The translations under genes were made by a program, and so were the position numbers. Below are positions 45,399-64,000 of a DNA stretch of 64,000 bases, one piece after another; within the stretch, counting starts at the first letter, position 1, and each line of letters begins with the position of its first letter. Under the pieces are notes generated by a model that did not search any database, was not told where the DNA came from, and saw nothing but the letters and a program-made list of their open reading frames with translations. The DNA comes from Escherichia coli (GTDB taxonomy: Bacteria; Pseudomonadota; Gammaproteobacteria; Enterobacterales; Enterobacteriaceae). The DNA lies in the NCBI RefSeq assembly GCF_024223415.1, contig NZ_CP100500.1; one strand, given 5' to 3'.

Positions 45399-45546
45399 CG
45401 CTGGTTGATTTTCCGAATTTAGCCCTTAAATCATCAACAATGCGCGTGGATGCCATTTCGCAGACGGCGCGAAAATGGTACTTTAAAGGGCTATTGCGGT
45501 AAGTTGACCATAATTTATTCGCTCTAACCACATAACGGGAAGTAAT

Positions 45547-45855
45547 GTGAAATATTTACTCATTTTCTTACTGGTGTTAGCGATCTTCGTGATTTCGGTC
45601 ACGTTGGGTGCGCAGAACGATCAACAGGTGACGTTTAATTATCTGTTAGCGCAAGGGGAGTACCGTATTTCCACATTGCTGGCGGTATTGTTTGCTGCGG
45701 GGTTTGCTATCGGTTGGTTGATTTGTGGCCTGTTCTGGCTGCGAGTTCGTGTTTCCCTGGCGCGCGCTGAACGTAAAATAAAGCGACTGGAAAACCAGCT
45801 TTCACCCGCGACTGACGTGGCTGTAGTGCCGCACTCGTCAGCGGCGAAGGAATAA
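45547..45855 (+). CDS. lapA: Lipopolysaccharide assembly protein A
   Basis: 102 aa, GTG start, two transmembrane helices. Confidence 0.8.
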   Translation: MKYLLIFLLVLAIFVISVTLGAQNDQQVTFNYLLAQGEYRISTLLAVLFAAGFAIGWLICGLFWLRVRVSLARAERKIKRLENQLSPATDVAVVPHSSAAKE

Positions 45856-45861
45856 CTTTCT

Positions 45862-47031
45862 ATGCTGGAGTTGTTGTTTCTGCTTTTGCCTGTAGCCGCT
45901 GCCTATGGCTGGTATATGGGCCGCAGAAGTGCGCAACAAAACAAGCAAGATGAAGCCAACCGCTTGTCGCGTGATTACGTAGCGGGGGTTAACTTCCTGC
46001 TTAGTAATCAACAGGATAAAGCGGTAGACCTGTTTCTCGATATGCTTAAAGAGGATACAGGCACCGTTGAAGCCCACCTTACGCTCGGAAACCTGTTCCG
46101 TTCGCGTGGCGAAGTTGATCGCGCTATTCGCATCCATCAGACCCTAATGGAAAGCGCCTCGCTGACCTATGAACAGCGTCTGTTGGCGATTCAACAACTG
46201 GGGCGTGATTACATGGCCGCCGGGTTATATGACCGCGCGGAAGACATGTTCAATCAGCTGACCGATGAAACTGACTTCCGCATTGGCGCGCTGCAACAGT
46301 TGCTACAAATCTACCAGGCTACCAGCGAGTGGCAGAAAGCAATTGATGTTGCCGAACGCCTGGTGAAGCTGGGTAAAGATAAACAGCGCGTCGAAATTGC
46401 CCATTTCTACTGTGAGTTAGCCCTGCAGCATATGGCCAGCGACGATCTCGATCGTGCCATGACCTTGCTAAAAAAAGGGGCGGCGGCAGATAAAAACAGC
46501 GCCCGCGTATCCATCATGATGGGACGCGTGTTTATGGCGAAAGGAGAATACGCCAAAGCCGTCGAAAGTTTGCAACGCGTGATATCCCAGGACAGAGAAC
46601 TGGTCAGCGAAACGCTGGAAATGCTGCAAACCTGCTATCAGCAGTTGGGTAAAACTGCCGAATGGGCAGAATTCCTGCAACGCGCGGTGGAAGAGAACAC
46701 CGGTGCCGATGCTGAATTGATGCTTGCTGATATCATCGAAGCGCGCGACGGTAGTGAGGCCGCACAGGTCTATATTACGCGCCAGCTTCAGCGTCATCCG
46801 ACCATGCGTGTGTTCCATAAGTTAATGGATTACCACTTAAATGAAGCGGAAGAAGGGCGTGCCAAAGAGAGCCTGATGGTGCTGCGTGACATGGTTGGCG
46901 AGAAGGTACGTAGTAAGCCTCGTTATCGCTGCCAGAAATGTGGTTTTACCGCATACACCCTCTACTGGCATTGTCCGTCTTGTCGTGCCTGGTCAACTAT
47001 TAAACCGATTCGCGGTCTTGATGGCCTGTAA
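45862..47031 (+). CDS. lapB: Lipopolysaccharide assembly protein B (TPR, rubredoxin-like C-terminus)
   Basis: 389 aa, C-terminal CxxC..CxxC. Confidence 0.9.
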   Translation: MLELLFLLLPVAAAYGWYMGRRSAQQNKQDEANRLSRDYVAGVNFLLSNQQDKAVDLFLDMLKEDTGTVEAHLTLGNLFRSRGEVDRAIRIHQTLMESASLTYEQRLLAIQQLGRDYMAAGLYDRAEDMFNQLTDETDFRIGALQQLLQIYQATSEWQKAIDVAERLVKLGKDKQRVEIAHFYCELALQHMASDDLDRAMTLLKKGAAADKNSARVSIMMGRVFMAKGEYAKAVESLQRVISQDRELVSETLEMLQTCYQQLGKTAEWAEFLQRAVEENTGADAELMLADIIEARDGSEAAQVYITRQLQRHPTMRVFHKLMDYHLNEAEEGRAKESLMVLRDMVGEKVRSKPRYRCQKCGFTAYTLYWHCPSCRAWSTIKPIRGLDGL

Positions 47032-47223
47032 TTTTTTAAAAAAACCGACTTTAGTTACAACATACTAGTTATTGATGTCCCATTGTGCTCCGGCAACGAC
47101 GGCGCAGAAAAAGCCTGCCAGGGGAGAAATCGCAACTGTTAATTTTTTATTTCCACGGGTAGAATGCTCGCCGTTTACCTGTTTCGCGCCACTTCCGGTG
47201 CCCATCATCAAGAAGGTCTGGTC

Positions 47224-47961
47224 ATGACGTTAACTGCTTCATCTTCTTCCCGCGCTGTTACGAATTCTCCTGTGGTTGTTGCCCTTGATTATCATAATCG
47301 TGATGCCGCGCTGGCCTTTGTCGACAAGATCGACCCACGCGATTGTCGTCTGAAGGTCGGCAAAGAGATGTTTACATTGTTTGGGCCACAGTTTGTGCGC
47401 GAACTTCAACAGCGTGGTTTTGATATCTTTCTTGACCTGAAATTCCACGATATCCCCAACACTGCAGCGCACGCTGTCGCTGCTGCAGCTGACTTAGGCG
47501 TGTGGATGGTGAATGTTCATGCCTTTGGTGGGGCGCGTATGATGACCGCAGCGCGTGAGGCACTGGTTCCGTATGGCAAAGATGCACCGCTTTTGATTGC
47601 TGTGACAGTGTTGACCAGCATGGAAGCCAGCGACCTGGCCGATCTTGGCGTGACACTGTCACCTGCAGATTATGCAGAACGTCTGGCGGCACTGACGCAA
47701 AAATGTGGCCTTGATGGTGTGGTGTGTTCTGCTCAGGAAGCTGTGCGCTTTAAACAGGTATTCGGTCAGGAGTTCAAACTGGTTACACCGGGCATTCGTC
47801 CGCAGGGGAGTGAAGCAGGTGACCAGCGCCGCATTATGACGCCAGAACAGGCGTTGGCGGCTGGTGTTGATTATATGGTGATTGGTCGCCCGGTAACGCA
47901 ATCGGTAGATCCAGCGCAGACGCTGAAAGCGATCAACGCCTCTTTACAGCGGAGTGCATGA
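47224..47961 (+). CDS. pyrF: Orotidine-5'-phosphate decarboxylase
   Basis: Start set at [23 protein letters not shown] (245 aa). Confidence 0.9.
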
Positions 47962-48287
47962 TGAGTGATTCCAACAGCCGTCTGGTCTACTCAACAGAAA
48001 CCGGGCGTATTGATGAGCCCAAAGCGGCCCCAGTACGCCCTAAAGGCGATGGTGTGGTGCGTATTCAGCGTCAGACCAGTGGACGTAAAGGTAAGGGCGT
48101 TTGCCTGATTACCGGTATCGATCTCGATGATGCCGAACTGACAAAACTTGCAGCGGAACTGAAGAAAAAATGCGGCTGCGGCGGAGCAGTTAAAGATGGA
48201 GTTATTGAAATCCAGGGCGATAAGCGTGATTTATTAAAATCACTACTTGAAGCGAAAGGGATGAAGGTAAAACTCGCAGGCGGTTAA
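47958..48287 (+). CDS. yciH: SUI1-family translation initiation factor homologue
   Basis: 109 aa, 4-nt overlap with pyrF. Confidence 0.85.
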
Positions 48288-48290
48288 CAT

Positions 48291-48320
48291 AAAAAGCCAC
48301 GGATATATCCGTGGCTTTCG
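48291..48320. terminator. Bidirectional terminator between yciH and osmB
   Basis: Perfect 22-bp palindrome AGCCACGGATAT/ATATCCGTGGCT with flanking A5 and T-rich tail. Confidence 0.5.
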
Positions 48321-48412
48321 AATATTTTACTGTGTGTATTATTCAGTTATTTCGTACTGAACAGAATCAAGCGTATTATAATTACGAGTCGATAATCGAC
48401 ATTTATTTACGA

Positions 48413-48631
48413 TTATTTACCGACCTGGTGACCAATAACACCACCGACAGCTGCGCCACCTAATGTACCCAACGTACTGCCATCGGTCAGTACTGCACCG
48501 CCTAATGCCCCTGCACCCGCGCCGATTGCGGTGTTGCGGTCCCGTTTAGACCAGTTAGAACAGGCACTCAGAGACATTGCCAGGGTAATTGCCAGAACAG
48601 CCGCGGTCATTTTTTTGCTCGTTACAAACAT
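48413..48631 (-). CDS. osmB: Osmotically inducible lipoprotein B
   Basis: 72 aa, lipobox LSAC, glycine-rich. Confidence 0.9.
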   Translation of the reverse strand: MFVTSKKMTAAVLAITLAMSLSACSNWSKRDRNTAIGAGAGALGGAVLTDGSTLGTLGGAAVGGVIGHQVGK

Positions 48632-48899
48632 AATACTCTCTCCTGAATTTATGATTCACGGAAGTAAGCTCTCTATAACTATAATAGCTAAGAATAAGCC
48701 TAGTGAAATTATTCCGTGAAATCCGCTCGCGCGCAGGGTTATATCACGCAGGTGATAATGACTTCCTGTTATATCGCTGATAATAATTTTATATCTTGAG
48801 AGTGTTAATAACAGGTAAATAGTCTTAATTATCAACCAGGAATCATCTTAGAGCGGATGATTTGCCAAACTGCAAATCATCCGTAGAGAAGGGAAATGG

Positions 48900-49649
48900 T
48901 TAAATGTCAACGACGTGAACGGTGAGTTTACTGTGCTCAAGATGCATCAGATCGCTGGCGCGTATTTTCGAATCGGTAATCACGCGATTGAATCGCTCAA
49001 CGGGACCGATGGAGTATGAATGTACAGCACCAAATTTCGAGCTGTCAGTCAGGACTATCGCTTCGCACTCTTTTTCCAGCACGGCATTCACCACATCGGT
49101 ACGCATCATATCGCGACCGGTGAATCCAGTTTCAGGTTGCCAGCCATCAATACCAATAAATGCTTTGCTGAAATGTACCTGTTGGATGCACTGGCGTGTC
49201 AACGGGCCAACCATACTTTCGCTTTTTTTCTGGTACACGCCACCGAGCAAAATAACTTCACAAGGCGCGTCTTTCAGCAAATGCGCGATGTAGCTGCTGA
49301 CCGTGATGATAGTGACATTTTTCTTCTGCTCCCCCAGAGTCCGGGCGAGCAGGGCATTGCTGCTGCCATTTTCGATAAAGATGGTTTCGCCCGGTTGAAC
49401 CAGTGACGCGGCAAACTCGGCGAGTTCACGCTTCAGCGTATAGTTGCTCATCATACGGGTTTCGACGTCATCACTATCAAGCGAAACTGCAAAGCCATGT
49501 GCACGGCGGAGGTAACTCAGTTTTTCGAGGGTGTTGAGATCCTGGCGAATGGTAACTTCAGAAACTCCAGTGGCTTTTGCCAGATCGGTTACGCTAACCT
49601 GACCCTGGTCAATGACCATCTGTAGAATAGTTTGTTGTCGGGAATTCAT
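48900..49649 (-). CDS. yciT: DeoR-family transcriptional regulator YciT
   Basis: 249 aa, N-terminal HTH. Confidence 0.85.
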
Positions 49650-49738
49650 CGCTGTAATTCTTATAACGTTATAATACTAAATAAAAAAATACTGACGCGC
49701 CGGGCATCCTCAAATAGGAAAACCTGAAGGCACGATTG

Positions 49739-49912
49739 TTAAATCTCCCACGGTGCCTTCGGGATGTCTGGCGTAGATTCAGCAACCTGGCGCAAGAGTT
49801 CTGCTTTAAGAATCTCGAGATTATGGATCGCAGAGTGGTAATCGCCTGCCACAAGGATATCTAACACAATATCAATACGTTCGGCAACGCGCTGGGCATC
49901 AAATTCAGACAT
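49739..49912 (-). CDS. yciZ: Small protein YciZ
   Basis: [36 protein letters not shown]; start ambiguous between 49921 and 49912. Confidence 0.6.
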
Positions 49913-50059
49913 CAAGGACATCCTTATAGCAAAAGGGGGAAAATGAATAATGCAAAAATTGCCGCTAAAAGAGAAGTGTTTAACAGCAACGGCTAATTAT
50001 CATCCGGGAATACGATATATAATGACGGAATATAGCGCTAAGTATATATATTCATCTAC

Positions 50060-52045
50060 TTATGCGCGCTTCAGATAGCGTTTATACCAGCGTTCGAAGG
50101 CGACGGCGGGCATCGGTTTGGCAAACAAAAATCCTTGCCGCTCATTGATCCCATTCTTGGTTAAAAAAGCATCTTCCTTTGCACTCTCTACACCTTCGGC
50201 GATCACCTGAAGATTCAATGCCTGGGCCACAGCGACGATTGCCCGAACCAGTGACTGCGAGACAGGTTGTTTGTGAATATCTCGAACAAAAACCTGGTCA
50301 AGTTTGATGGCATCGATCGGAAAGCGCGCCAGTTGCGAAAGTGAAGAGTAGCCGGTACCAAAATCATCCAGATGCACTTGCGCACCTAGTTGGCTAAATT
50401 GTTGAATAACAGACAGTGCCAGTTCATCATTCTCAATCAGACAACTCTCTGTCAATTCAACATCAATAGGGCAGTATTCAAAATTGAGTTTCTGGAGAAC
50501 CTGTTTCAGGGCGGTGAAAATGGTTTGATCGGCGAGCTGACGTGCAGAAATGTTTACCGCCACTCGCAGGTTAATGCCTTTATCCCGCCACTTCGCCACC
50601 TGGCGTACGACATCGAGAATCACCCAACGGCCTAAAGGCACAATTAGCCCTGACTCTTCTGCGTAGGAAATGAAGTCCAACGGTGGAATCAACCCACGTT
50701 CAGGTGACTGCCAACGTACTAGTGCTTCCAGACTGCGCACTTCGCCACGCCAGGTGATTTTCGGTTGATAGTGAATAACCAACTGATCGTTTTCCAGTGC
50801 TTTACGCAAGTTGGTATCCAGCCAGAGATATTCAAATACCCGTTGATTCATTTCTGGGGTAAAAACGCAAAATTGTCCTCGTCCGCCTTCCTTTGCTGTG
50901 TACATTGCTGTGTCGGCGTGACGAATAATAGCCGCGCTGTCCGAACCATGTTCGGGAGAGAGTGCAATACCTACTGAACAGCTGGTATAAACTTCAATTA
51001 AACCAATGCGAAAGGGGAGCCGTAAGCGGGTCAAAATTCGTGATGCCATTGCTTCCAGCGCGCTTTGTGAGGTGTTGGATGCCAGTACCAGAAACTCATC
51101 GCCACCTGGACGCGCCAACACCTGGTCATGTTCGAGACAGCTTAAAATAGCCAATGACACGTCGCGTAATAACTGGTCACCAAACAAATGCCCATAGGCG
51201 TCGTTGACCTTTTTAAAATTATCCAAATCAAGATACACGACCCCAACTTTATTGTTATCTGCCTGATTAATAGCGTGATCGATTAACTCCTGCATTGCGT
51301 TACGATTCGGCAGTCCGGTGATACTGTCGGTATTTGCCAGAATACGCAGTCGTTCCTGAGCGCGGCGCTCTTCGGTAATGTCGGTGCCGGAACAGATTAA
51401 AAAAATCTCGTTTTTGCCACTGCCGCTGTGGACAAATTTATTGCGAAACAGAAACAGCCGCTGGCCTTTACGTGTTGGTATCCACAGTTCGACTTCATAT
51501 GCATTGCCGCTTCGAAAAAATACACGGTTATTGCGCCTGGATGCCGCAGCTTCACGACGGCTCATAAACAGTTTAAACACGCTTTGGCCAATGACGTCGT
51601 GTTCGTTCAACCCTGTGTAATCTTCACATAACCGATTGAAGCGTTGGATATTCCCCCGGCTGTCGAGAATCACTATTGCGGAATGTGCTTCAGAAACTAC
51701 CTGCTCAGCAAAGGAAAGTCCGTGTGATAAATCACGAGCAACTGCTGGTGTGTCATGCCATGCAGACGCGTTGCCAGCCCATTCCCGTTTATTGATTTTT
51801 CGTCCTACCAGATGCACAGAAAGATCGCTCTCATCGACGGTCAGACTCATCATCAGGCTGGAGGTGATGACCGTCATTTCCCTGATGCGAGCAGCCTGTT
51901 CGGCAGATAACTGCAACGTACGTTCAGGTTCTGTGGTTTCGGTGGTAGAAAAGCGCAAAACATCGCTGCTTTCCGTCAACCGCCAGTATGGATTGTGCGA
52001 TCCGAGAAAGTTGTACAACGTTGTGGACTCCCTAACGGTTTTCAT
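50060..52045 (-). CDS. pdeR: Cyclic-di-GMP phosphodiesterase (PAS-GGDEF-EAL)
   Basis: 661 aa, degenerate GGDEF then EAL domain. Confidence 0.9.
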   Translation of the reverse strand: MKTVRESTTLYNFLGSHNPYWRLTESSDVLRFSTTETTEPERTLQLSAEQAARIREMTVITSSLMMSLTVDESDLSVHLVGRKINKREWAGNASAWHDTPAVARDLSHGLSFAEQVVSEAHSAIVILDSRGNIQRFNRLCEDYTGLNEHDVIGQSVFKLFMSRREAAASRRNNRVFFRSGNAYEVELWIPTRKGQRLFLFRNKFVHSGSGKNEIFLICSGTDITEERRAQERLRILANTDSITGLPNRNAMQELIDHAINQADNNKVGVVYLDLDNFKKVNDAYGHLFGDQLLRDVSLAILSCLEHDQVLARPGGDEFLVLASNTSQSALEAMASRILTRLRLPFRIGLIEVYTSCSVGIALSPEHGSDSAAIIRHADTAMYTAKEGGRGQFCVFTPEMNQRVFEYLWLDTNLRKALENDQLVIHYQPKITWRGEVRSLEALVRWQSPERGLIPPLDFISYAEESGLIVPLGRWVILDVVRQVAKWRDKGINLRVAVNISARQLADQTIFTALKQVLQKLNFEYCPIDVELTESCLIENDELALSVIQQFSQLGAQVHLDDFGTGYSSLSQLARFPIDAIKLDQVFVRDIHKQPVSQSLVRAIVAVAQALNLQVIAEGVESAKEDAFLTKNGINERQGFLFAKPMPAVAFERWYKRYLKRA

Positions 52046-52280
52046 GATGCATATCCTCCGGTTAACTGCGGAGTCCGCGGTTAAATAAAAGGAACAACAT
52101 GACTTACATGAAATTAACGGCGGCTAAACGCATTGTTTTTTTTATATATTTATTTGTAATCCAGTTTTGGAAAAACGCCAGTTTTCAAACGAAAGTCAGT
52201 TAAAAAATCTGCCTGGATATAACGAAGGTAGAGCGGGGAAATAAACGGCCCATCCATGAGGAATGGGCCGTGAAAGGAGA

Positions 52281-54215
52281 TTACGCGACCGGGCGCGCAA
52301 TAATGCTGCGGGTTTCCATGCGGACTTCGGCAATGGTGACGTCAATAACGTCAGTTACTTTGTAAACCGTTTCACCTTTAATTTGTACAGTGCCGTTTTC
52401 CTGGCTGCAAACCAGTTCATCGCGCACAGCGTGTAAGAAAGGTGCCGGAATAAAGGCGATAGCGCCGTTATCAACCAAACGAACACGCATGCCGCCACGG
52501 CTGATATCGACAATTTCCGCCGAGAAACGGGTGTCGGTCCCGGCTTTGTCTTTCAGGAAGCGTGCGTATAACCAGTCGCCAACATCACGTTCTGCCATCC
52601 GGTTGAGACGGCGACGCTCGGCCATTTGCACAGTGATTTCATCCTGTGGACGCGTCGCAGTTTCGCCTTTGATAACCGCTTTCAGCAGACGGTGGTTGAT
52701 CATGTCGCCATATTTACGGATCGGCGAAGTCCAGGTGGCGTATGCTTCCAGACCGAGGCCAAAGTGAGGACCGGGTTCAGTGCTAATTTCAGCAAATGAC
52801 TGGAAGCGACGAATGCGGCTGTCGAGGAAACCAGTTGGTTGCGCATCCAGTTCACGACGCAGTTTGCAGAAACCGTCCAGCGTGAGCACTTCTTCGGCAT
52901 CGACATGCAGACCGTGCGTTTTCAGCAACGCTGCCAGCGCGTCGGCATTCGCCGGATCAAAGCCCATATGCACGTTATAGATACCAAAACCGAGCTTATC
53001 GCGCAGTACGCGAGCCGCACAAATGTTAGCGGCAATCATCGCTTCTTCGACGATACGGTTGGCAATGCGACGAGGCTCGGCGACGATATCCAGCACTTCA
53101 CCTTTTTCACCGAGAATAAAGCGGTAATCCGGGCGATCTTTAAACACCAGTGCGTGGTTATGACGCCACTCGCCGCGGCGTTGGCAAATTTGCGCTAGCA
53201 AACGGACTTGTTTGGCAATTGCTTCACTTTCAGGCTGCCAGTCACCGGTATTCTCCAGCCAGTCAGAAACCTGGTCATACACCAGCTTCGCTTTGGATTC
53301 GATGGTGGCGGCAAAGAATTCGATATTATCTTCAATGGTGCCATCAGCGGAGAGCGTCATGCGGCATGCCAGTACCGGGCGGACTTCATTGGCGCGCAGT
53401 GAGCAGAGATCGTCAGAAAGCTCGCGAGGCAGCATAGGGATGTTGAAGCCAGGCAGATAGTTGGTGAATGCGCGAATTTTCGCGGCTTTGTCCAGCTTGC
53501 TGCCTTCAGCAATCCACGCGGTTGGATCGGCAATCGCCACAATCAGCTGAAGTTTGTCATCCGGCAACGCCTTAGCGAAAAGGGCGTCATCCATATCTTC
53601 TGTGCTGGCACTGTCGATGGTGACAAAATCCAGCGCGGTCAGATCTTTACGAACCAGACCTTCATCGAGCATTTCGGTAGCGACGCCGTCTGGTGCTTCT
53701 TTTTCCAGATTATGGCGCGCAAGGGTAACCCACCACGGTACAAAGTGGTCGTCACCAAAAGTGATGTATTGTGTCAGTTCAGCATAGAAAGAACGATCGC
53801 CTTTCAGCGGATGACGGCGCATTTCGGCAACTGCCCAGTCGCCTTCTTTAAACTCGTGGTTCAGACCACGGGCTGCGCGGCAAGGAATGGCGTCTTTTAA
53901 GAGTGGATGATCAGGAACGATGGCCAGACGGTCATTTTTGCCCTGAACTTTACCCACGAAACGAGTCAGAAACGGTTCAACCAGTTCTTCTGGCTCTGCG
54001 GATTCACGTTCTTTTTCACTGTGGATCACCGCGATAATTCGGTCGCCATGCATGACTTTTTTCATCTGCGGCGGCGGAATGAAATAACTTTTTTGCGCGT
54101 CGACTTCCAGGAAGCCAAAACCTTTTTCTGTGGCTTTTACCACCCCTTCAGCGCGTGGCGTCTGGGAATGCAGTTGCTGTTTAAGCTGCGCTAGCAGCGG
54201 GTTGTCCTGAAACAT
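52281..54215 (-). CDS. rnb: Exoribonuclease II
   Basis: 644 aa, [39 protein letters not shown]. Confidence 0.95.
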
Positions 54216-54282
54216 AATTGTCTATTTTGGTGGCCATTAGAGCGGCTGACAGTTTTACGCGAATCTGTCTGACGCGGCAAGG

Positions 54283-55410
54283 TTAATATGTCTCACCCAA
54301 CGCGATTTTTAAGCGATTTATCCAGCCACACAGCCCGCTCCATACCAGCAGATTAATAATCTGCGTTGATGATTTTTCGTGTTCGAGTAAAGGGCTGAAC
54401 TGGGCGGCGCTAAAGCGATCGGGTGCTCGGGTCAGCCATTGTATCGCCTGAACGGTAGCGCGCTCAACAGAATGACGGTCAGCCCATTGGTTAATTTCAT
54501 TTTCGCCCTTGCGCAGAAGGGTGCTGATTTTTTTATATTCATTTGATGAATCCATACAGGCGGCAAAACAAGCAGGACTGCCATTTATCCGCGCGCATAA
54601 CAACGCCGCAAGCTGATTATCCGGCTGTGTATTAACCCGTGTGCTGTTTAACAACCTTTCGAGAAGGGAAAGTGAAATAGGGTGGAGAGAGAGTATTTCG
54701 GCCAGTTGGCAAAGTTCTGCAGTTGAACTTTTTGTGTGTTCTTCAGGTAGTTTTTCCACCTCATAGCTGCTTCGCCAGCGTAATGATTCATCAGCAAACA
54801 GTGACGCGTCGGCGTAGTTTTGTATCTCCAGCCCGGGTAACCAGCGTACCGGATGCCCGAGATAAGCCTGAAATGTCGCAATTGTCCGCGCCTGAAAGCC
54901 AATAAAACCAATGATTTGGTTAATGATCACACAGTCCCAGGCAGTAAGACCGACGTCATTCAGATGCTGGCGCGATCGGTTGTCGATAATAGAAGGCGAG
55001 CTAGCCAGTTGGCGGGCATATTGCGTGATTTGTGCTAACCGATGATTACTTTCCCTGGAGGAATCAGGCCCGGGGAGCGGCGTAAGTCGCGCCGAATAGT
55101 AGTTACATAACCGCTGGACGCCGCAAACCTGAGCAACCGTCAGGGCCGTCGACAAGCGTTCATAAGCGGTGAAGGTCTGTGAACGGGTCACGGTAAGCTG
55201 GTCAGGGAACAAATCCACTGCAAGAACACGCGCAGGGTCCAGCCATGAAAGGAAGGGGGCCAGCGTTTCTTTTTCAAGGATCACGTCGAGTAGAAAGGGA
55301 TCGCTGACCTTTGCGGCTTCCGGGACCAGAGGCAGAACGTCATACTCCGTAGTACTGGATTGCGTTTCATGATACCAGTGGCTTTTGCCGGTGATGTGGC
55401 GTTGTTCCAT
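54283..55410 (-). CDS. yciW: CMD-domain protein YciW
   Basis: Start set at [15 protein letters not shown] (375 aa); ORF track extends 26 codons further. Confidence 0.75.
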
Positions 55411-55553
55411 GGGCGCTCCTTGGTCGTAAAGGAAATCGTTATCCTGACGCAAGGCGGGAAGGGGAGAAAGACGGATCGGCGATAACAAATATCAGAAAGG
55501 TATAACAGAGATAACGGGCGGCAGAACGCCGCCCATCTTTACCAACAGAACGA

Positions 55554-56342
55554 TTATTTCAGTTCGAGTTCGTTCATTGCAGCAATGCTGAAACCGCCGT
55601 CAACGTGGACCACTTCACCGGAGATACCGGCAGAGAGATCGGAGCACAGGAATGCCGCAGAGTTACCCACATCTTCAATAGTAACGGTACGGCGAATCGG
55701 GGTAACGGCTTCGCAATGAGCCAGCATTTTGCGGAAGTCTTTGATACCGGAGGCCGCCAGAGTACGGATCGGACCAGCAGAGATGGCGTTAACACGCACA
55801 CCTTCCGGACCCATCGCGTTCGCCATATAGCGCACGTTCGCTTCCAGAGACGCTTTTGCCAGACCCATAACGTTGTAGTTCGGGATAGCGCGCTCAGCGC
55901 CAAGGTAGGAAAGGGTCAGCAGGGCAGAACCCGGATTCAGCATGGAGCGGCAAGCTTTTGCCATTGCAACGAAGCTGTAGGAGCTGATGTCGTGGGCAAT
56001 TTTGAAGCCTTCACGAGTAACGGCGTTAACATAGTCACCATCCAGCTGATCGCCAGGTGCAAAACCAATAGAGTGTACGAAACCGTCAAATTTCGGCCAA
56101 ACTTTCCCCAGTTCAGCGAACATGGTGTCGATGCTGGCATCTTCGGCAACATCGCATTGCAGAACGATATTGGAACCCAATTGAGCGGCAAATTCTTCTA
56201 CGCGGCCTTTCAGTTTGTCGTTCTGGTAGGTGAATGCCAGTTCAGCTCCTTCGCGGTGCATCGCCTGAGCGATACCGTAGGCGATGGACAGTTTGCTGGC
56301 AACACCGGTTACCAGAATGCGCTTACCGGAAAGAAAACCCAT
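55554..56342 (-). CDS. fabI: Enoyl-ACP reductase (NADH)
   Basis: 262 aa, [28 protein letters not shown]. Confidence 0.95.
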
Positions 56343-56819
56343 AGCTTTAATCCTTATTGTTGATGCTTGTTGTGCCTGAAAATCAGGCGATTCGTCGTTT
56401 TAGTAAACAGTACGAACAGATAAACGGTTATTATAATCAACCTGGCTGTGGGTGGCTATAGTTGCGCTTTCTGTACCGGAGAGAAGCTGCGGTACAGAGC
56501 ATTTTGCGTTATCTACTCTTGACGCCTGCAAGGGGTAGGTTGGGGAAATATCTTATAGAATCTGACTATGAAACTATTCGTATTAGCTCCGATAAGTTTG
56601 ATGATGAAAACAGAACTGGCGACAACAAGTAGCAGCCTTTCTGATGAATTGACCCCAACTTAATATTGTCAACTATCTTCACAGAATCTCCACAATCTCT
56701 TCATTATCAGAATATGCACCATGAATAAGATAAAAATACTTTCCATTACTTTGGAGAAACGTATAATCAGCAAAAATGAGAACGATCATTCTCACCAAGT
56801 GATAGGCCAGGAGACAGAA

Positions 56820-57386
56820 ATGACCAGCAAGCTGGAGATACGCCACAAACAGCGTCAGGATGAAATCATTAACGCCGCCCGTCGGTGTTTTCGTCGCTGC
56901 GGGTTTCATGCCGCCAGTATGTCGCAAATTGCCAGCGAAGCTCAGCTTAGCGTGGGTCAGATATATCGTTACTTCGCCAACAAAGACGCCATTATTGAAG
57001 AGATGGTTCGCCGTATCATCGACTTTCGTATTGCCCAAATGGACATTGACGCGCGTACCGATCACTTCCCGGAAGTCCTTGCCTTGCGTAAATCCTTAAA
57101 TGAGGACGACGACGCGCTGATGCTGGAAGTGGCTGCAGAAGCCACACGCAACCCGCGGGTTATGGCAATGCTTGAAGAAGCTGACGCCAGAATGTTCGCT
57201 AACGGTTGTGCACATATGAAAAGAATGCATCCCCATCTTAGCGACGAGCACATTCGTTGCTGCGTTGAAGTGTTTGCTACCATGATGGAAGGTACGGTTT
57301 ATCGTCGTTTAACACCGCAAAAAAGCGATCCACAACATCTGCAGGAAATATATCAGGATATTGTTAGTATGTTGATAAATAAATAA
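56820..57386 (+). CDS. TetR/AcrR-family transcriptional regulator
   Basis: N-terminal HTH (RRCGFHAASMSQIASEAQLSVGQIYRYFANKDAI); ATG 56820 behind AGGAG preferred over the 56721 start. Confidence 0.75.
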   Translation: MTSKLEIRHKQRQDEIINAARRCFRRCGFHAASMSQIASEAQLSVGQIYRYFANKDAIIEEMVRRIIDFRIAQMDIDARTDHFPEVLALRKSLNEDDDALMLEVAAEATRNPRVMAMLEEADARMFANGCAHMKRMHPHLSDEHIRCCVEVFATMMEGTVYRRLTPQKSDPQHLQEIYQDIVSMLINK

Positions 57387-57406
57387 GAACAGAATTAACC
57401 AATAGC

Positions 57407-57430
57407 GGGGGATATTAATCCCCCTTATTT
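57407..57430 (+). terminator. Intrinsic terminator after the TetR gene
   Basis: GGGGGAT-atta-ATCCCCC followed by TTATTT. Confidence 0.5.
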
Positions 57431-57454
57431 CATTGCGAAATTCATTTCGCGATG
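57431..57454. promoter_or_regulatory. Imperfect 24-bp palindrome; candidate regulator binding site
   Basis: CATTGCGAAAT-tc-ATTTCGCGATG, one mismatch between arms. Confidence 0.35.
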
Positions 57455-57487
57455 CGGGTTCGTTATAACTGAATATCCCTGACATAT

Positions 57488-57507
57488 CCTCATTAATTTT
57501 AATGAGG
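57488..57507. promoter_or_regulatory. Perfect 20-bp palindrome just upstream of the efflux operon RBS; candidate TetR operator
   Basis: CCTCATTAA-tt-TTAATGAGG, about 28 nt before the membrane-fusion-protein start. Confidence 0.4.
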
Positions 57508-57534
57508 AGGGTATTTCTCATCCTGGAGAAAATA

Positions 57535-58656
57535 ATGAAGTATATAGCAACATCTGTAGTGGCAATGCTGCTCTTATCTGGTTGTGATAATACGCAAAGT
57601 AACAATTCATCCCCGTCAGAAACAGAAGTCGGCGTTGTTACAGTCAAATCTCAACCGGTCTCGGTAGTCAGTGAATTAACCGGACGCATCAGTGCTGCGC
57701 TCAGTGCCGAAGTACGTCCGCAGGTTGGGGGAATTATCCAGAAACGCTTATTTAAGGAAGGTGATCTGGTCAAGGCTGGACAGCCGCTCTACCAGATTGA
57801 TGCGGCCAGTTATCAGGCTGCATGGAATGAAGCTCGGGCAGCATTACAACAAGCACAGGCACTGGTAAAAGCCGATTGCCAGAAAGCGCAGCGTTATGCC
57901 CGACTGGTGAAAGAGAACGGTGTTTCACAACAGGATGCTGATGATGCTCAGTCTACCTGTGCACAAGATAAAGCCAGTGTAGAGGCGAAAAAAGCCGCAC
58001 TGGAAACTGCGCGCATTAATCTTGACTGGACCACGGTAACCGCACCGATTTCAGGGCGCATTGGCATTTCGTCGGTAACCCCTGGCGCACTGGTGACCGC
58101 GTCGCAAGATACAGCGTTAACGACTATTCGTGGTCTGGATACAATGTATGTCGACCTCACTCGCTCCAGTGTCGATTTATTACGTCTGCGTAAACAGTCA
58201 CTGGCGACCAACAGTGACACCATGAGCGTCTCACTTATTCTGGAAGATGGCACAACCTACAGCGAAAAAGGGCGTCTGGAACTCACCGAAGTCGCTGTAG
58301 ATGAGTCTACCGGTTCGGTGACATTACGGGCGATTTTCCCCAATCCACAACAGCAGTTATTACCGGGAATGTTTGTTCGCGCTCGTGTCGATGAAGGCGT
58401 GATGGAAGACGCTATTCTCGCGCCGCAACAGGGCGTCACGCGCGATGCTAAAGGCAATGCAACTGCGCTGGTGGTGAATAAAGACAATAAAGTAGAGCAG
58501 CGAACGCTCGAAACGGGAGAAACATATGGTGATAAATGGCTGGTGCTAAACGGCCTGCACAACGGCGACCGACTGATTGTTGAAGGTTCTGCCAAAGTCA
58601 CTTCAGGGCAGACGGTCAAGGCTGTTGAAGTTCAGGCTAATGGAGGCAACTCCTGA
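57535..58656 (+). CDS. RND efflux membrane fusion protein (AcrA/MexA family lipoprotein)
   Basis: Lipoprotein signal MKYIATSVVAMLLLSGC; coiled-coil and beta-barrel regions typical of periplasmic adaptors; stop overlaps next start. Confidence 0.8.
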   Translation: MKYIATSVVAMLLLSGCDNTQSNNSSPSETEVGVVTVKSQPVSVVSELTGRISAALSAEVRPQVGGIIQKRLFKEGDLVKAGQPLYQIDAASYQAAWNEARAALQQAQALVKADCQKAQRYARLVKENGVSQQDADDAQSTCAQDKASVEAKKAALETARINLDWTTVTAPISGRIGISSVTPGALVTASQDTALTTIRGLDTMYVDLTRSSVDLLRLRKQSLATNSDTMSVSLILEDGTTYSEKGRLELTEVAVDESTGSVTLRAIFPNPQQQLLPGMFVRARVDEGVMEDAILAPQQGVTRDAKGNATALVVNKDNKVEQRTLETGETYGDKWLVLNGLHNGDRLIVEGSAKVTSGQTVKAVEVQANGGNS

Positions 58657-61600
58657 TGTTTTCGCGCTTTTTTGTTCGCCGCCCGGTCTTTGCCTGGGTT
58701 ATCGCCATTTTGATTATGTTGGCGGGGATTCTGGCTATTCGCACATTGCCCGTCGCGCAATATCCTGACGTTGCGCCACCGACCATTAAAATTTCAGCCA
58801 CTTATACTGGTGCTTCTGCCGAAACGCTGGAGAACAGCGTGACTCAGGTCATCGAGCAACAACTCACTGGGCTTGATAATTTACTCTATTTCAGCTCAAC
58901 CAGCAGCTCTGATGGTTCGGTCAGTATTAATGTGACCTTTGAACAAGGTACCGATCCAGATACTGCACAGGTTCAGGTGCAGAATAAAATTCAGCAGGCG
59001 GAGTCGCGCCTACCCAGCGAAGTGCAGCAAACGGGTGTTACGGTGGAGAAATCACAAAGCAACTTTTTGCTGATTGCTGCCGTGTATGACACCACTGACA
59101 AAGCCTCCAGTTCGGATATCGCCGACTGGTTGGTTAGTAACGTTCAGGACCCGCTGGCGCGTGTTGAAGGTGTGGGGAGTCTGCAAGTCTTTGGCGCGGA
59201 ATACGCTATGCGCATCTGGCTTGACCCGGCCAAACTGGCGTCTTACTCGCTAATGCCTTCAGACGTGCAAAGTGCTATTGAAGCGCAAAACGTGCAGGTT
59301 ACTGCCGGGAAAATAGGGGCATTGCCTTCACCGAATACTCAGCAACTGACCGCAACGGTACGTGCGCAGTCTCGCTTGCAGACGGTGGATCAGTTCAAAA
59401 ATATTATCGTGAAAAGCCAGTCAGACGGCGCAGTTGTTCGTATAAAAGATGTGGCTCGCGTTGAGATGGGCAGTGAAGATTATACCGCTATCGGCAAACT
59501 TAACGGTCACCCGTCTGCCGGGGTTGCTGTAATGCTTTCGCCCGGTGCGAATGCGCTGAATACGGCGACGCTGGTCAAGGATAAGATTGCCGAATTCCAG
59601 CGGAACATGCCGCAGGGATACGACATTGCTTACCCGAAAGACAGCACTGAATTTATTAAAATCTCTGTAGAGGACGTAATTCAGACGCTGTTTGAAGCCA
59701 TCGTATTGGTGGTTTGCGTGATGTATTTATTCCTGCAAAACCTGCGTGCCACACTGATTCCGGCGTTAGCTGTCCCCGTCGTTTTACTGGGCACATTCGG
59801 CGTTCTTGCGTTGTTTGGCTATTCGATTAATACCCTGACGTTGTTTGCAATGGTGCTGGCGATCGGCTTGCTGGTGGACGATGCCATTGTGGTAGTGGAG
59901 AACGTCGAACGCATTATGCGTGACGAAGGGTTGCCCGCGCGTGAAGCCACGGAAAAATCAATGGGCGAGATTTCTGGCGCACTGGTTGCCATTGCGCTGG
60001 TGTTGTCAGCCGTATTCCTGCCTATGGCCTTCTTTGGGGGATCTACGGGGGTAATTTATCGTCAGTTTTCGATAACCATTATCTCCGCAATGCTGCTTTC
60101 CGTGGTGGTGGCATTGACCTTGACTCCCGCCCTGTGCGGCTCCGTCCTCCAGCATGTTCCGCCACATAAAAAAGGCTTTTTCGGCGCATTTAACCGCTTT
60201 TACCGCCGTACTGAAGATAAATATCAGCGAGGCGTAATTTATGTCCTGCGCCGTGCTGCTCGAACGATGGGGCTTTATCTCGTACTGGGTGGTGGAATGG
60301 CCCTGATGATGTGGAAACTGCCGGGCAGTTTCTTACCCACTGAAGACCAGGGCGAAATCATGGTGCAGTACACGCTGCCGGCCGGGGCGACCGCTGCCCG
60401 TACAGCAGAAGTGAATCGCCAGATTGTTGACTGGTTCCTGATTAACGAGAAAGCAAATACCGATGTCATTTTTACCGTTGATGGTTTCAGTTTTAGCGGC
60501 AGCGGACAGAACACCGGGATGGCGTTTGTTTCGTTGAAAAACTGGTCTCAACGTAAAGGGGCAGAAAACACCGCCCAGGCTATCGCCCTACGGGCAACCA
60601 AAGAGCTGGGCACAATTCGTGATGCCACGGTATTTGCGATGACGCCGCCAGCCGTTGATGGGCTGGGGCAAAGCAATGGTTTTACGTTTGAATTGTTAGC
60701 TAACGGTGGAACCGATCGCGAAACACTACTGCAAATGCGTAATCAGTTGATAGAAAAAGCGAATCAAAGTCCGGAGTTACATTCTGTGCGTGCCAATGAT
60801 TTGCCACAAATGCCGCAATTGCAGGTAGATATTGATAGTAATAAAGCGGTGTCATTAGGGTTGAGTTTGAATGATGTCACCGACACCCTGTCCAGTGCGT
60901 GGGGCGGTACTTATGTGAATGACTTTATTGACCGTGGTCGTGTGAAAAAAGTCTACATTCAGGGCGACAGTGAATTTCGTTCCGCGCCGTCAGACTTAGG
61001 TAAATGGTTTGTGCGCGGTAGCGATAACGCCATGACACCATTCTCTGCTTTTGCGACCACCCGCTGGCTGTATGGACCGGAAAGACTGGTGCGCTACAAC
61101 GGTTCTGCAGCCTATGAAATTCAGGGGGAAAATGCGACTGGCTTTAGTTCCGGCGATGCAATGACAAAAATGGAGGAACTGGCAAACAGTCTTCCTGCGG
61201 GAACAACCTGGGCCTGGAGTGGTTTGTCATTGCAGGAGAAACTGGCCAGCGGTCAGGCATTGAGTCTGTATGCAGTTTCTATTCTGGTGGTTTTCCTCTG
61301 CCTTGCAGCACTGTACGAAAGCTGGTCAGTCCCGTTCTCGGTCATTCTGGTGATCCCTCTGGGGCTTCTTGGCGCGGCGCTGGCGGCCTGGATGCGTGAT
61401 TTAAACAACGATGTTTACTTCCAGGTGGCGCTATTAACCACTATCGGCTTGTCGTCGAAAAACGCCATTCTGATTGTGGAATTTGCTGAAGCGGCGGTTG
61501 CAGAGGGCTATTCCTTGAGTCGTGCGGCATTACGCGCGGCGCAGACTCGTTTACGCCCAATCATCATGACCTCGCTGGCGTTTATTGCGGGGGTAATGCC

Positions 61601-61763
61601 GCTGGCGATAGCAACCGGCGCAGGGGCGAACAGCCGCATCGCCATTGGTACGGGCATTATTGGCGGTACGCTGACCGCTACGTTGCTGGCTATTTTCTTT
61701 GTTCCTCTGTTTTTTGTACTGGTGAAACGTTTGTTTGCCGGTAAATCGCGCCGTCAGGAGTAA
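58656..61763 (+). CDS. RND multidrug efflux permease, AcrB/MexB-like
   Basis: 1035 aa, N-terminus MFSRFFVRRPVFAWVIAILIMLAGILAI.., and ..LAIGLLVDDAIVVVENVER.. are hallmark AcrB-family motifs. Confidence 0.9.
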   Translation: MFSRFFVRRPVFAWVIAILIMLAGILAIRTLPVAQYPDVAPPTIKISATYTGASAETLENSVTQVIEQQLTGLDNLLYFSSTSSSDGSVSINVTFEQGTDPDTAQVQVQNKIQQAESRLPSEVQQTGVTVEKSQSNFLLIAAVYDTTDKASSSDIADWLVSNVQDPLARVEGVGSLQVFGAEYAMRIWLDPAKLASYSLMPSDVQSAIEAQNVQVTAGKIGALPSPNTQQLTATVRAQSRLQTVDQFKNIIVKSQSDGAVVRIKDVARVEMGSEDYTAIGKLNGHPSAGVAVMLSPGANALNTATLVKDKIAEFQRNMPQGYDIAYPKDSTEFIKISVEDVIQTLFEAIVLVVCVMYLFLQNLRATLIPALAVPVVLLGTFGVLALFGYSINTLTLFAMVLAIGLLVDDAIVVVENVERIMRDEGLPAREATEKSMGEISGALVAIALVLSAVFLPMAFFGGSTGVIYRQFSITIISAMLLSVVVALTLTPALCGSVLQHVPPHKKGFFGAFNRFYRRTEDKYQRGVIYVLRRAARTMGLYLVLGGGMALMMWKLPGSFLPTEDQGEIMVQYTLPAGATAARTAEVNRQIVDWFLINEKANTDVIFTVDGFSFSGSGQNTGMAFVSLKNWSQRKGAENTAQAIALRATKELGTIRDATVFAMTPPAVDGLGQSNGFTFELLANGGTDRETLLQMRNQLIEKANQSPELHSVRANDLPQMPQLQVDIDSNKAVSLGLSLNDVTDTLSSAWGGTYVNDFIDRGRVKKVYIQGDSEFRSAPSDLGKWFVRGSDNAMTPFSAFATTRWLYGPERLVRYNGSAAYEIQGENATGFSSGDAMTKMEELANSLPAGTTWAWSGLSLQEKLASGQALSLYAVSILVVFLCLAALYESWSVPFSVILVIPLGLLGAALAAWMRDLNNDVYFQVALLTTIGLSSKNAILIVEFAEAAVAEGYSLSRAALRAAQTRLRPIIMTSLAFIAGVMPLAIATGAGANSRIAIGTGIIGGTLTATLLAIFFVPLFFVLVKRLFAGKSRRQE

Positions 61764-61766
61764 GTT

Positions 61767-63140
61767 ATGTTGCGTCGTTCTCTTATTTTTCTGGTGCTGT
61801 TGAGTGCGGGATGTGTCTCGCTCGATCCCCACTACAGCACGCCTGAATCCCCAATCCCGGCGACCTTGCCGGGAGCACAGGGCCAGGGAAAGGCAATCAG
61901 CCATGACTGGCAGCAGGTGATCCACGATCCCCGATTGCAGCAGGTGGTGACTATTGCACTGAACAGTAACCGCGATGTGCAAAAAGCGATTGCTGATATT
62001 GACTCAGCACGGGCGCTCTATGGGCAAACTAATGCGTCGTTATTCCCGACGGTGAATGCGGCCTTAAGTTCAACTCGCAGTCGTTCGCTGGCGAATGGTA
62101 CGGAAACCACTGCCGAGGCTGACGGCACGGTGTCCAGTTTTACGTTAGATCTGTTTGGTCGTAATCAGAGTTTATCTCGGGCGGCGCGAGAAACCTGGCT
62201 TGCCAGTGAATTTACAGCCCAGAACACCCGTTTAACGCTGATTGCTGAAATCAGCACCGCCTGGCTGACACTGGCGGCCGATAACAGCAACCTGGCCCTG
62301 GCAAAAGAAACGATGACCAGTGCAGAAAACTCATTGAAAATTATCCAGCGCCAGCAACAGGTTGGCACGGCGGCAGCGACAGATGTCAGTGAGGCGATGA
62401 GTGTTTATCAGCAAGCGCGCGCCAGCGTTGCCAGCTATCAGACACAAGTGATGCAGGATAAAAATGCGCTGAACTTACTGGCAGGTACAACGCTTGAGGA
62501 AAATTTGCTACCGGGAACACTGGAAAGCCTGCCGGAACAGATGATAAGTCTGGTTCCTGCGGGAGTGTCATCTGACGTTCTGCTGCGTCGCCCGGATATC
62601 CAGGAAGCGGAACATAATTTGAAGAGCGCCAATGCTGATATTGGCGCGGCGCGGGCTAACTTTTTCCCGACGATTTCGCTGACTGCCAGCGCTGGTGTTG
62701 GCAGTGACGCATTGTCGTCGTTGTTCAGCCACGGAATGCAGATCTGGTCATTTACGCCATCGGTCACATTACCGCTGTTCACTGGCGGAAGTAATCTGGC
62801 GCAGCTTCGTTACGCAGAAGCACAAAAGCGTGGACTCATTGCCACCTATGAAAAAACCGTTCAGAGCGCATTTAAAGATGTCGCTAACGCACTGGCGCGG
62901 CGGACCACGCTTGAAGAGCAACTGGATGCACAGCGCCAGTATGTTAAAGCTGAGCAACAAACGGTCGATGTTGGCTTGCGTCGCTATCAGACGGGTGTTG
63001 GTGATTACCTGACCGTGTTGACGGCGCAGCGCAGCTTGTGGAGCGCACAGCAGGAGCTGCTGGCACTGCAACTGACTGATTTTACAAACCGAATCACGCT
63101 CTGGCAGTCGCTGGGCGGCGGCATGTCATCACTCAAGTAA
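61767..63140 (+). CDS. Outer-membrane efflux factor lipoprotein (OprM/NodT family)
   Basis: 457 aa, lipobox LLSAGC, follows the permease by 3 nt. Confidence 0.8.
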   Translation: MLRRSLIFLVLLSAGCVSLDPHYSTPESPIPATLPGAQGQGKAISHDWQQVIHDPRLQQVVTIALNSNRDVQKAIADIDSARALYGQTNASLFPTVNAALSSTRSRSLANGTETTAEADGTVSSFTLDLFGRNQSLSRAARETWLASEFTAQNTRLTLIAEISTAWLTLAADNSNLALAKETMTSAENSLKIIQRQQQVGTAAATDVSEAMSVYQQARASVASYQTQVMQDKNALNLLAGTTLEENLLPGTLESLPEQMISLVPAGVSSDVLLRRPDIQEAEHNLKSANADIGAARANFFPTISLTASAGVGSDALSSLFSHGMQIWSFTPSVTLPLFTGGSNLAQLRYAEAQKRGLIATYEKTVQSAFKDVANALARRTTLEEQLDAQRQYVKAEQQTVDVGLRRYQTGVGDYLTVLTAQRSLWSAQQELLALQLTDFTNRITLWQSLGGGMSSLK

Positions 63141-63148
63141 GGAATAAT

Positions 63149-64000
63149 ATGGCTAGAGTCTCTCTTTCATGGGCATTGATTCTTGGTCTTTTAGCCGGTA
63201 TCGGCCCGATGTGTACCGATCTTTATTTGCCGGCTTTGCCGGAGATGTCTGAGCAACTGGCGGCAACCACGACCATAACGCAATTAACGCTGACTGCATC
63301 ACTGATCGGTCTTGGCGTCGGACAACTGTTATTTGGCCCTCTGAGCGACAAAATAGGGCGTAAACGTCCGTTAATCTTGTCGTTGCTATTGTTTATTGTT
63401 TCTTCCATTTTGTGCGCGACAACGAACAATATTTACTGGCTGGTGGTCTGGCGTTTTATTCAAGGGATCGCGGGGGCGGGTGGTTCGGTGCTCTCTCGTT
63501 CTATTGCTCGTGACAAATATCAGGGAGTAACGTTGACCCAGTTTTTTGCGCTGTTAATGACGGTGAATGGCCTGGCACCGGTGTTGTCGCCAGTGCTGGG
63601 CGGGTACATTGTTAGCACTTTTGACTGGCGCACTTTATTCTGGGTAATGGCTGAAATTAGCACCGTATTGTTGCTGGGCTGCGTGTTATTTATTAATGAG
63701 ACCTTGCCAGAAAATAAAAGGGGCTCATCATTGCTATTAACCGGACGAAGCGTGGTGCAGAACCGCCGTTTTATGCGCTTTTGCCTGATTCAAAGTTTTA
63801 TGCTGGCAGGCTTGTTTGCGTATATCGGCTCTTCGTCGTTCGTGTTGCAGAAGGAATTTGGCTTTAGTCCAATGCAATTTAGCCTGGTGTTTGGCCTTAA
63901 CGGCATCGGACTTATCATTGCTTCATGGATCTTTTCGCGTCTGGCGCGACGGATTAATGCGATGACATTGTTGCGAGGTGGCCTGATAGCGGCAATTTTG
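63149..64000 (+). CDS. MFS drug/H+ antiporter (Bcr/CflA-like), 3' end outside window
   Basis: MARVSLSWALILGLLAGIGPMCTDLYLPALP.. and ..GPLSDKIGRKRP..; open to the window end. Confidence 0.75.
   Translation, partial: MARVSLSWALILGLLAGIGPMCTDLYLPALPEMSEQLAATTTITQLTLTASLIGLGVGQLLFGPLSDKIGRKRPLILSLLLFIVSSILCATTNNIYWLVVWRFIQGIAGAGGSVLSRSIARDKYQGVTLTQFFALLMTVNGLAPVLSPVLGGYIVSTFDWRTLFWVMAEISTVLLLGCVLFINETLPENKRGSSLLLTGRSVVQNRRFMRFCLIQSFMLAGLFAYIGSSSFVLQKEFGFSPMQFSLVFGLNGIGLIIASWIFSRLARRINAMTLLRGGLIAAIL

Follow-up and report, generated by a model that had tools for sequence, protein, structure and literature searches.

The eefRABCD efflux operon at the fabI-sapF site of an Escherichia coli chromosome: an intact copy of a published locus, its distribution and its probable history

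The window analysed here, a stretch of 64,000 nucleotides from Escherichia coli (contig NZ_CP100500.1), ends, at position 64000, within a set of five co-oriented plus-strand genes that follows fabI (55554-56342, minus strand). With high confidence, we identify this segment as the chromosomal and intact eefRABCD operon of E. coli, which encodes a repressor-controlled resistance-nodulation-division (RND) efflux pump together with a transporter of the major facilitator superfamily (MFS). The segment occupies the fabI-sapF site in place of ycjD, has the five genes in the published order and orientation, and contains the EefR operator. Since eefRABCD has already been described and tested in papers of 2025 (Shen et al.; PMC12482432) and 2026 (Pugh et al.; PMC12817139), the finding is real but not new. 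The operon is a seventh RND pump that is missing from the K-12 model and is silent until EefR is lost. As has also been published, derepressed Eef can bring back multidrug resistance in cells whose AcrB is missing or inhibited, a point of relevance to strategies based on efflux inhibitors. The additions of the present analysis are minor. They include presence and absence figures for complete genomes, a ycjD replacement allele of apparently single origin and without eef remnants, the doubtful nature of the plasmid records, and a putative structured leader that may help to reconcile conflicting functional studies.

Between positions 56000 and 64000 the window shares 100% DNA identity with several annotated E. 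coli chromosomes, in which genes for a TetR-family regulator, an adaptor, an RND permease, an outer-membrane factor and an MFS transporter stand between fabI and sapF, and the region 44000-64000 differs from strain SCU-316 by two bases only. The eef allele is 98.3% identical at the DNA level to that of strain 'Seattle 1946', which we take to be ATCC 25922, used by Pugh et al. as their reference strain. The nearest E. coli alleles of the window segment are those of O157:H7 and O145 strains (99.6-99.7%). A preliminary description, made from the DNA alone, had listed a TetR regulator, a fusion protein, an AcrB-like permease, an outer-membrane factor and an MFS pump. All five genes are present and intact on the plus strand, and their reading frames are free of stops. 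The tight coupling that it reported for the pump genes is likewise borne out, with an overlap of eefA and eefB (TGATG) and gaps of 3 nt between eefB and eefC and of 8 nt between eefC and eefD.

The EefR protein carries an N-terminal TetR helix-turn-helix domain (Pfam TetR_N, PF00440; E = 2.1e-15; residues 16-62). The product of eefA scores above the RND adaptor (membrane fusion protein, MFP) model TIGR01730 (276 bits against a cut-off of 94.9), and its best named models are MexA and AcrA, both with scores under their own cut-offs. EefB exceeds the HAE-1 model TIGR00915 (1553 bits; cut-off 940) as well as NF000282 (1501 bits; cut-off 1250), and the residues of the proton relay, D408, D409, K935 and T972, are all conserved. 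It falls, however, under the equivalog cut-offs for AcrB (1381 against 2150 bits), AcrD (1408 against 1854) and OqxB (847 against 2200), and belongs to a lineage separate from these three equivalogs. Among solved structures the nearest to EefB are AcrB (1288 bits) and MexB (1277 bits). The eefB gene has no internal stops, so that the possibility of a degraded permease pseudogene, raised in the preliminary description, is dismissed. EefC lies above TIGR01845 (371 bits; cut-off 210) and fails the TolC equivalog model (57.7 bits; cut-off 495). For EefD, the 283 of 387 residues encoded before the window end suffice to exceed the Bcr/CflA model TIGR00710 (256 bits; cut-off 200.9). In the identical record the full-length gene encodes 387 amino acids and ends at about the window-equivalent of 64312, approximately 312 nt past the window, and is followed by sapF on the opposite strand. 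The window therefore encodes what had been proposed, a tripartite RND pump with its own channel and a co-transcribed MFS pump.

Regulation by the TetR-family protein is supported by an exact match to the published operator, TGAGAACGATCATTCTCA, for which electrophoretic mobility shift assays (EMSA), point mutants and reporter data are available (PMC12482432). EefR binds this palindrome upstream of its own gene, and it represses itself and the four pump genes. In the same study, reverse transcription PCR placed all five genes, eefR included, on one transcript, and loss of EefR raised the pump mRNA 27- to 83-fold. The four-gene operon of the preliminary description is thus one gene too short. Promoter activity in the 316-bp region upstream was demonstrated with a green fluorescent protein (GFP) reporter (PMC12482432). 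Our consensus scan predicts the promoter given in Table 1 (10 of 12 consensus matches). In the 64-kb window the palindrome is the sole operator match when up to 3 mismatches are allowed; a second operator, for example one before eefA, was not found at that threshold.

In an alignment of the region upstream of eefR from 11 taxa, the near-invariant block consists of ACGTAT(AAT), a short spacer, and (A)ATGAGAACGATC(A/G)TTCTCAC. ACGTAT is kept in 10 of the 11 taxa, and TATAAT in the nine that have no 11-nt gap there. The operator itself is near-invariant, with two variable positions, while the flanking sequence varies, and a perfect palindrome is seen in Pseudocitrobacter and K. cryocrescens. As judged from these sequences, the alignment independently recovers the published EefR operator. 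The positions of the -10 element and the operator also decide on the start of the regulator gene. Because both fall inside the longer reading frame that begins at 56721, the first ATG adopted in the preliminary description, and because most of the compared taxa align with a start at the ATG at 56820, which is preceded by GGAG, the true start of eefR is 56820. Likewise eefA starts at 57535 and not at the first ATG of its frame (57502), which falls within the third hairpin of the spacer. The spacer between fabI and eefR (56343-56819; 477 nt) is AT-rich, with a GC content of 0.394 against 0.51 for the window.

The conservation of these elements also bears on whether the operon might be a decaying, non-functional remnant in the window strain. 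Its silence under laboratory conditions (PMC12482432) would be in keeping with decay, as would disruptions in some other strains, namely IS1203 inside eefB of the O157:H7 isolate NZ_CP062723.1 and the record NZ_CP127324.1, in which the best match spans only 54% of the eef segment and a second match place is present. In the window, however, the five reading frames are without stops and of full length, the catalytic residues, lipoboxes, promoter and operator are present, and among the 2,043 complete genomes that bear the allele 2,037 hold at least 80% of the segment. At the level of sequence the idea of a remnant is already refuted for the window, and we give it practically no credence.

Table 1. 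Positions of the eef genes and of the predicted control elements in the window
Feature	Position	Strand	Description and basis
Imperfect hairpin	56470-56498	+	12-nt arms (TCTGTACCGGAG / CTGCGGTACAGA); inverted repeat at left edge of variable segment
eefR promoter (predicted)	56740-56767	+	-35 TTTCCA (56740-56745), 16-nt spacer, -10 TATAAT (56762-56767); consensus scan
EefR operator	56777-56794	+	18-bp palindrome TGAGAACGATCATTCTCA; exact match to motif published in PMC12482432
eefR	56820-57386	+	TetR-family autorepressor, 188 aa; RefSeq annotation of 100%-identical record; no internal stops
Hairpin H1	57407-57424	+	GGGGGAT ATTA ATCCCCC, then T-run; terminator scan; stem kept with differing sequence in 12 taxa
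Hairpin H2	57431-57454	+	CAUUGCGAAA UUCA UUUCGCGAUG; first palindrome of the preliminary description
Hairpin H3	57487-57508	+	UCCUCAUUA AUUU UAAUGAGGA; just upstream of eefA ribosome-binding site; second palindrome of the preliminary description
eefA	57535-58656	+	Periplasmic adaptor lipoprotein, 373 aa; lipobox LLLSGC
eefB	58656-61763	+	HAE-1 RND permease, 1035 aa; no internal stops
eefC	61767-63140	+	NodT/OprM-type outer-membrane factor lipoprotein, 457 aa; lipobox LLSAGC (residues 11-16)
eefD	63149-64000 (window end)	+	Bcr/CflA-type MFS (DHA1) transporter; first 283 of 387 codons

The operon is accessory in E. coli, as had been supposed. Complete genomes with the eef allele number 2,043 out of 5,426 (about 38%). 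K-12 is without it and has the order fabI-ycjD-sapF at the site, with the sap genes following ycjD as the preliminary description had stated. The K-12-type ycjD allele is found in 3,377 of the same genomes. Added up, the near-complete eef alleles (2,037) and the ycjD alleles leave just 12 genomes unaccounted for. They are thus alternative alleles of the same site and are essentially mutually exclusive. According to Pugh et al., eefRABCD occurs in phylogroups B2, D, E, F and G and not in A, B1 and C (PMC12817139).

The preliminary description had taken the operon to be inserted downstream of fabI, which in its strong form would make it a recently inserted, horizontally acquired accessory island in the lineage of the window strain. 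That K-12 and 62% of complete E. coli genomes lack the operon speaks for an insertion. In Citrobacter, Kluyvera, Enterobacter and Pseudocitrobacter the cassette lies at other places in the chromosome, and must therefore have moved sometime in the history of the family, and Pugh et al. propose lateral acquisition since parts of it resemble MexAB-OprM (PMC12817139). These points are outweighed by the state of the site. In E. albertii the order is yciW-fabI-eefRABCD-sapF-sapD-sapC, i.e., the same site and the same gene order, with identities of 99% for FabI, 98% for SapF, 97% for EefB and 93% for EefD. A copy of eefB (96-98% identical) is found in E. whittamii and Escherichia sp. MOD1-EC7003 too. 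The species named with eef by Pugh et al. are E. albertii and E. marmotae (PMC12817139), and its presence in E. whittamii adds to this list. With a GC content of 0.504, the eef segment matches the backbone (0.512 in the remainder of the window). The junctions showed neither direct or inverted repeats nor target-site duplications, and no shared words of at least 8 nt, and no integrase, insertion sequence (IS), transposase or tRNA is annotated within 32 kb in the identical record. Flanking repeats, a mobility gene, an adjacent tRNA and a deviant composition, by which a mobile genomic island would be recognised, are thus all lacking here. Moreover, the nearest relatives of EefB outside Escherichia belong to the Enterobacteriaceae at 88-91% identity, which fits orthologues at the level of the family and not an import from Pseudomonas, and the examined plasmid copies are mislabelled pieces of chromosome. 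A recent insertion is largely refuted by this evidence, and we consider it very improbable.

On the grounds of the shared site and order in E. albertii, the other Escherichia carriers, the backbone GC content and the lack of repeats and mobility genes, it is the K-12 state that is to be regarded as derived, which is also the view of Pugh et al. (PMC12817139). The operon probably stood at the fabI-sapF site before E. coli and E. albertii separated, and the old operon would then have been replaced by a ycjD segment of about 0.6 kb in the line from which phylogroups A, B1 and C, K-12 among them, descend. In other words, eef is accessory in E. coli through loss in part of the species and not through gain in the window strain. 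An ancient acquisition of eef at the base of Escherichia, as distinct from a recent insertion, may have occurred.

The structure of the ycjD allele was compared with that of the eef allele by BLAST. On the left, homology between them extends to about 56492-56498, and on the right it sets in again at the terminator hairpin of sapF, immediately beyond eefD. The imperfect hairpin at the left edge of the variable segment (Table 1) is placed exactly at the end of this homology, upstream of a promoter-like site of fabI (56458-56430, minus strand). The K-12 spacer of about 0.6 kb (L002 3189-3821) consists of a GC-rich dispersed repeat, a partial duplication of the 3' end of ycjD, and ycjD itself. A search of this spacer for eef remnants (blastn, word size 7, E up to 10) gave only chance-level matches of at most 33 nt between the shared flanks. 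For this reason the reading of PMC12817139, in which conserved fragments of the operon are retained in K-12, is not accepted. At its junctions the ycjD allele of K-12 agrees precisely with a divergent E. coli allele (92.7% identical) and with that of E. ruysiae, which argues for one replacement event and not for two or three independent deletions; independent losses that left remnants are what PMC12817139 proposes. This suggests that the ycjD allele arose by a single replacement and was subsequently inherited, or spread by homologous recombination through the conserved flanks. The idea that ycjD originally occupied this site throughout the Enterobacteriaceae found no support, as the loci at which Enterobacter and Klebsiella have their DUF559 homologues are unrelated ones.

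Two further features of the K-12 spacer (L002 3198-3253 and 3330-3440) were recorded. The palindromic dispersed repeat has a median of 4 matching places in K-12-type genomes, and 1-4 copies elsewhere in eef-positive genomes. It resembles the 'Box C' family. The duplication of the ycjD 3' end is about 100 nt long and is absent in E. ruysiae.

Relatives of EefB with 88-91% identity occur in Citrobacter koseri, C. amalonaticus, Kluyvera, Pseudocitrobacter, Lelliottia and Enterobacter. The cassette of TetR regulator, adaptor, RND permease, outer-membrane factor and MFS transporter is intact in C. koseri, C. amalonaticus, K. intermedia, K. cryocrescens, Enterobacter sp. C4G1 and Pseudocitrobacter, and the MFS gene (eefD) is absent in Lelliottia sp. 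WB101 and Dryocola. The RND-plus-MFS linkage, called an unusual arrangement in the preliminary description, is so in relation to K-12. The judgement does not extend to the family, since several other genera keep the same five genes. From these comparisons the linkage appears to be a conserved feature of an old Enterobacteriaceae module whose nearest relatives are enterobacterial and not Pseudomonas-like. Outside Escherichia the cassette has different neighbouring genes. A GNAT acetyltransferase and a pair formed by a TetR regulator and a TRI12-type MFS transporter often adjoin it in Kluyvera, Enterobacter, Lelliottia and Pseudocitrobacter, and in C. koseri it adjoins a FecCD-type iron ABC system.

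In PLSDB, full-length matches to the cassette were limited to 3 records (4.9 Mb, 386 kb and 253 kb), all typed as non-mobilizable. Two of the records designated as plasmids, NZ_CP141085.1 and CP054253.1, have the chromosomal neighbours rnb, fabI and sap genes beside eef. The chromosomal order rnb-fabI-eef-sap is maintained in both, continuing as sapFDCBA in KE48 and as sapDCB in pBone4_4. The genes pdeR, yciW and sapF are annotated in NZ_CP141085.1 and not in CP054253.1, and ymjA is annotated in one or both. Because these two records look like chromosome fragments and are typed as non-mobilizable, carriage of eef by plasmids was rejected, and the published suggestion of plasmid spread is doubtful.

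In the mechanism that we propose, EefR binds the single 18-bp palindrome, which overlaps the start of its own transcript, and so keeps the five-gene transcript almost silent. Were repression to be lost, through mutation of eefR or through some ligand, EefABC would assemble. The lipoprotein adaptor EefA, the permease EefB and the lipoprotein channel EefC would then form a proton-driven tripartite pump built like MexAB-OprM, and EefD, a predicted 12-helix MFS pump of the Bcr/CflA type, would export across the inner membrane. A natural inducer, a natural substrate, a hand-over from EefD to EefABC and a role for the three hairpins are elements of this scheme that we infer.

Several observations weigh against the account given so far, with respect to both its history and its function. 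E. fergusonii is without the operon (PMC12817139), and the case for an operon ancestral to the genus comes from E. albertii, E. whittamii and one further species of Escherichia. The functional studies conflict on antibiotics. In one, deletion or weak expression led to no change in the minimum inhibitory concentration (MIC) of antibiotics, and activity did not go beyond the export of ethidium and rhodamine 6G in an AcrB-null host (PMC12817139), whereas in the other the loss of EefR in AcrB-null cells raised the MICs of sanguinarine, erythromycin, chloramphenicol, clindamycin, fusidic acid and tetracycline 4- to 32-fold (PMC12482432). EefD showed no synergy with EefABC for the compounds tested (PMC12482432), and no natural inducer or substrate of Eef is known. 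The proposal of the preliminary description that the operon could extend resistance holds only when EefR is inactivated in an AcrB-null background, and does not hold for the wild type, in which deletion left the MICs as they were.

These results leave considerable room for a different view of what the pump does, one that touches neither its identity nor its mechanism. Its native task might be the export of a host-derived or endogenous compound, drug efflux being a side activity that appears on forced overexpression. Deletion of eefB, eefABC or eefD in ATCC 25922 does not change MICs (PMC12817139), the operon is intact at more than 98% identity across phylogroups (our allele survey; PMC12817139), and the cassette is kept across genera along with its operator and the putative structured leader. 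In K. pneumoniae, deletion of eefA reduces gut colonisation and acid tolerance (cited in PMC12817139). Against this, there is no positive pointer to such a substrate, the neighbouring genes vary between genera and give no consistent hint, and derepression does produce clear multidrug resistance in AcrB-null cells (PMC12482432). We regard a native role of this kind as a substantial possibility, though somewhat short of an even chance.

The spacer between eefR and eefA (57387-57534; 148 nt) may hold a further level of control. The preliminary description had noted a terminator and two palindromes between regulator and adaptor, and these correspond to hairpins H1, H2 and H3 (Table 1). In 12 Enterobacteriaceae taxa the sequence of the spacer drifts, while the three stem-loops are kept by compensatory changes, and each of the 12 orthologous spacers, folded singly, forms the same three hairpins. 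For H1 and H2 taken together, the share of paired cells is 94%, compared with 79% after shuffling and 50-63% with the partners slid, and both sides are changed in 10 of 14 pairs. The observed covariation was reached by none of 500 shuffles. Of the 9 aligned pairs of H2, 7 are changed on both sides, and 97% of its cells are paired. The H3 stem is present in all 12 taxa, with swaps of A-U to G-C and of U-A to C-G and with several U-G wobbles, which are able to pair in the plus-strand RNA only. H1 looks like an intrinsic terminator after eefR. Such a terminator must be leaky, because the eef operon is co-transcribed. A consensus scan found no sigma-70 promoter on the plus strand of the spacer, and manual inspection gave weak candidates only. 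No Rfam match was found in 56300-57700 at E values up to 1, and these hairpins are not mentioned in PMC12817139 or PMC12482432. A six-codon mini-ORF (ATG at 57453) was considered as a leader peptide and rejected, as in E. albertii it has a stop at codon 2.

We tentatively suggest, while according it somewhat less than an even chance, that the spacer is a conserved structured RNA leader rather than a mere terminator and spacer. If so, it could tune read-through from the eefR promoter as well as the stability or translation of eefABCD. It could also explain why Shen et al. needed sequence upstream of eefA, which was essential for the phenotype of their multi-gene constructs (PMC12482432), and could contribute to the near-absent phenotype of the ATG-cloned constructs of Pugh et al. 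The latter were made through an NdeI site in pET vectors and used uninduced in MG1655 hosts (PMC12817139). Expression from them was, we infer, very low because MG1655 is without T7 RNA polymerase. Our hypothesis is that low expression and the missing native leader together may lie behind the conflicting MIC data.

Elsewhere in the window, between yciC and ompW, positions 18993-19082 correspond to a 90-nt pseudogene fragment of a YkgJ-family cysteine-cluster protein, according to the annotation of a near-identical RefSeq record.

Compared with known systems, the window operon is the same in all defining features as the published E. coli eefRABCD (Fricke et al. 2008, strain SMS-3-5; Pugh et al. 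2024 preprint and 2026, Microb Genom, PMC12817139; Shen et al. 2025, Virulence, PMC12482432), from which it differs by allelic variation only. The EefABC proteins of Klebsiella (Enterobacter) aerogenes and K. pneumoniae belong to the same pump family, and EefA, EefB and EefC of E. coli are 78%, 87% (87.3% for EefB) and 75% identical to those of K. aerogenes (PMC12482432). By its published description, the K. aerogenes locus differs in being without eefR and eefD and in being silenced by H-NS. MexAB-OprM of Pseudomonas aeruginosa is likewise a tripartite HAE-1 RND system whose operon encodes an OprM/NodT-type lipoprotein channel of its own. Against EefB the score of MexB is almost that of AcrB, and MexA is the best named adaptor model for EefA. 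The identity to MexAB-OprM is, however, only about 57% (PMC12817139), its regulator MexR is of the MarR type and divergently transcribed, and the mexAB-oprM operon has no MFS gene. The K-12 systems AcrAB-TolC, AcrD, AcrEF and MdtEF share the RND subfamily, the architecture and the proton-relay residues with EefB, but these pumps use TolC, whereas eef encodes its own channel. Finally, among the Bcr/CflA and EmrD/MdfA-type DHA1 exporters of the MFS, EefD falls into the Bcr/CflA subfamily and is about 30% identical to E. coli Bcr (PMC12482432). Unlike those exporters it is encoded inside an RND operon, a linkage that is kept in Citrobacter, Kluyvera, Enterobacter and Pseudocitrobacter.

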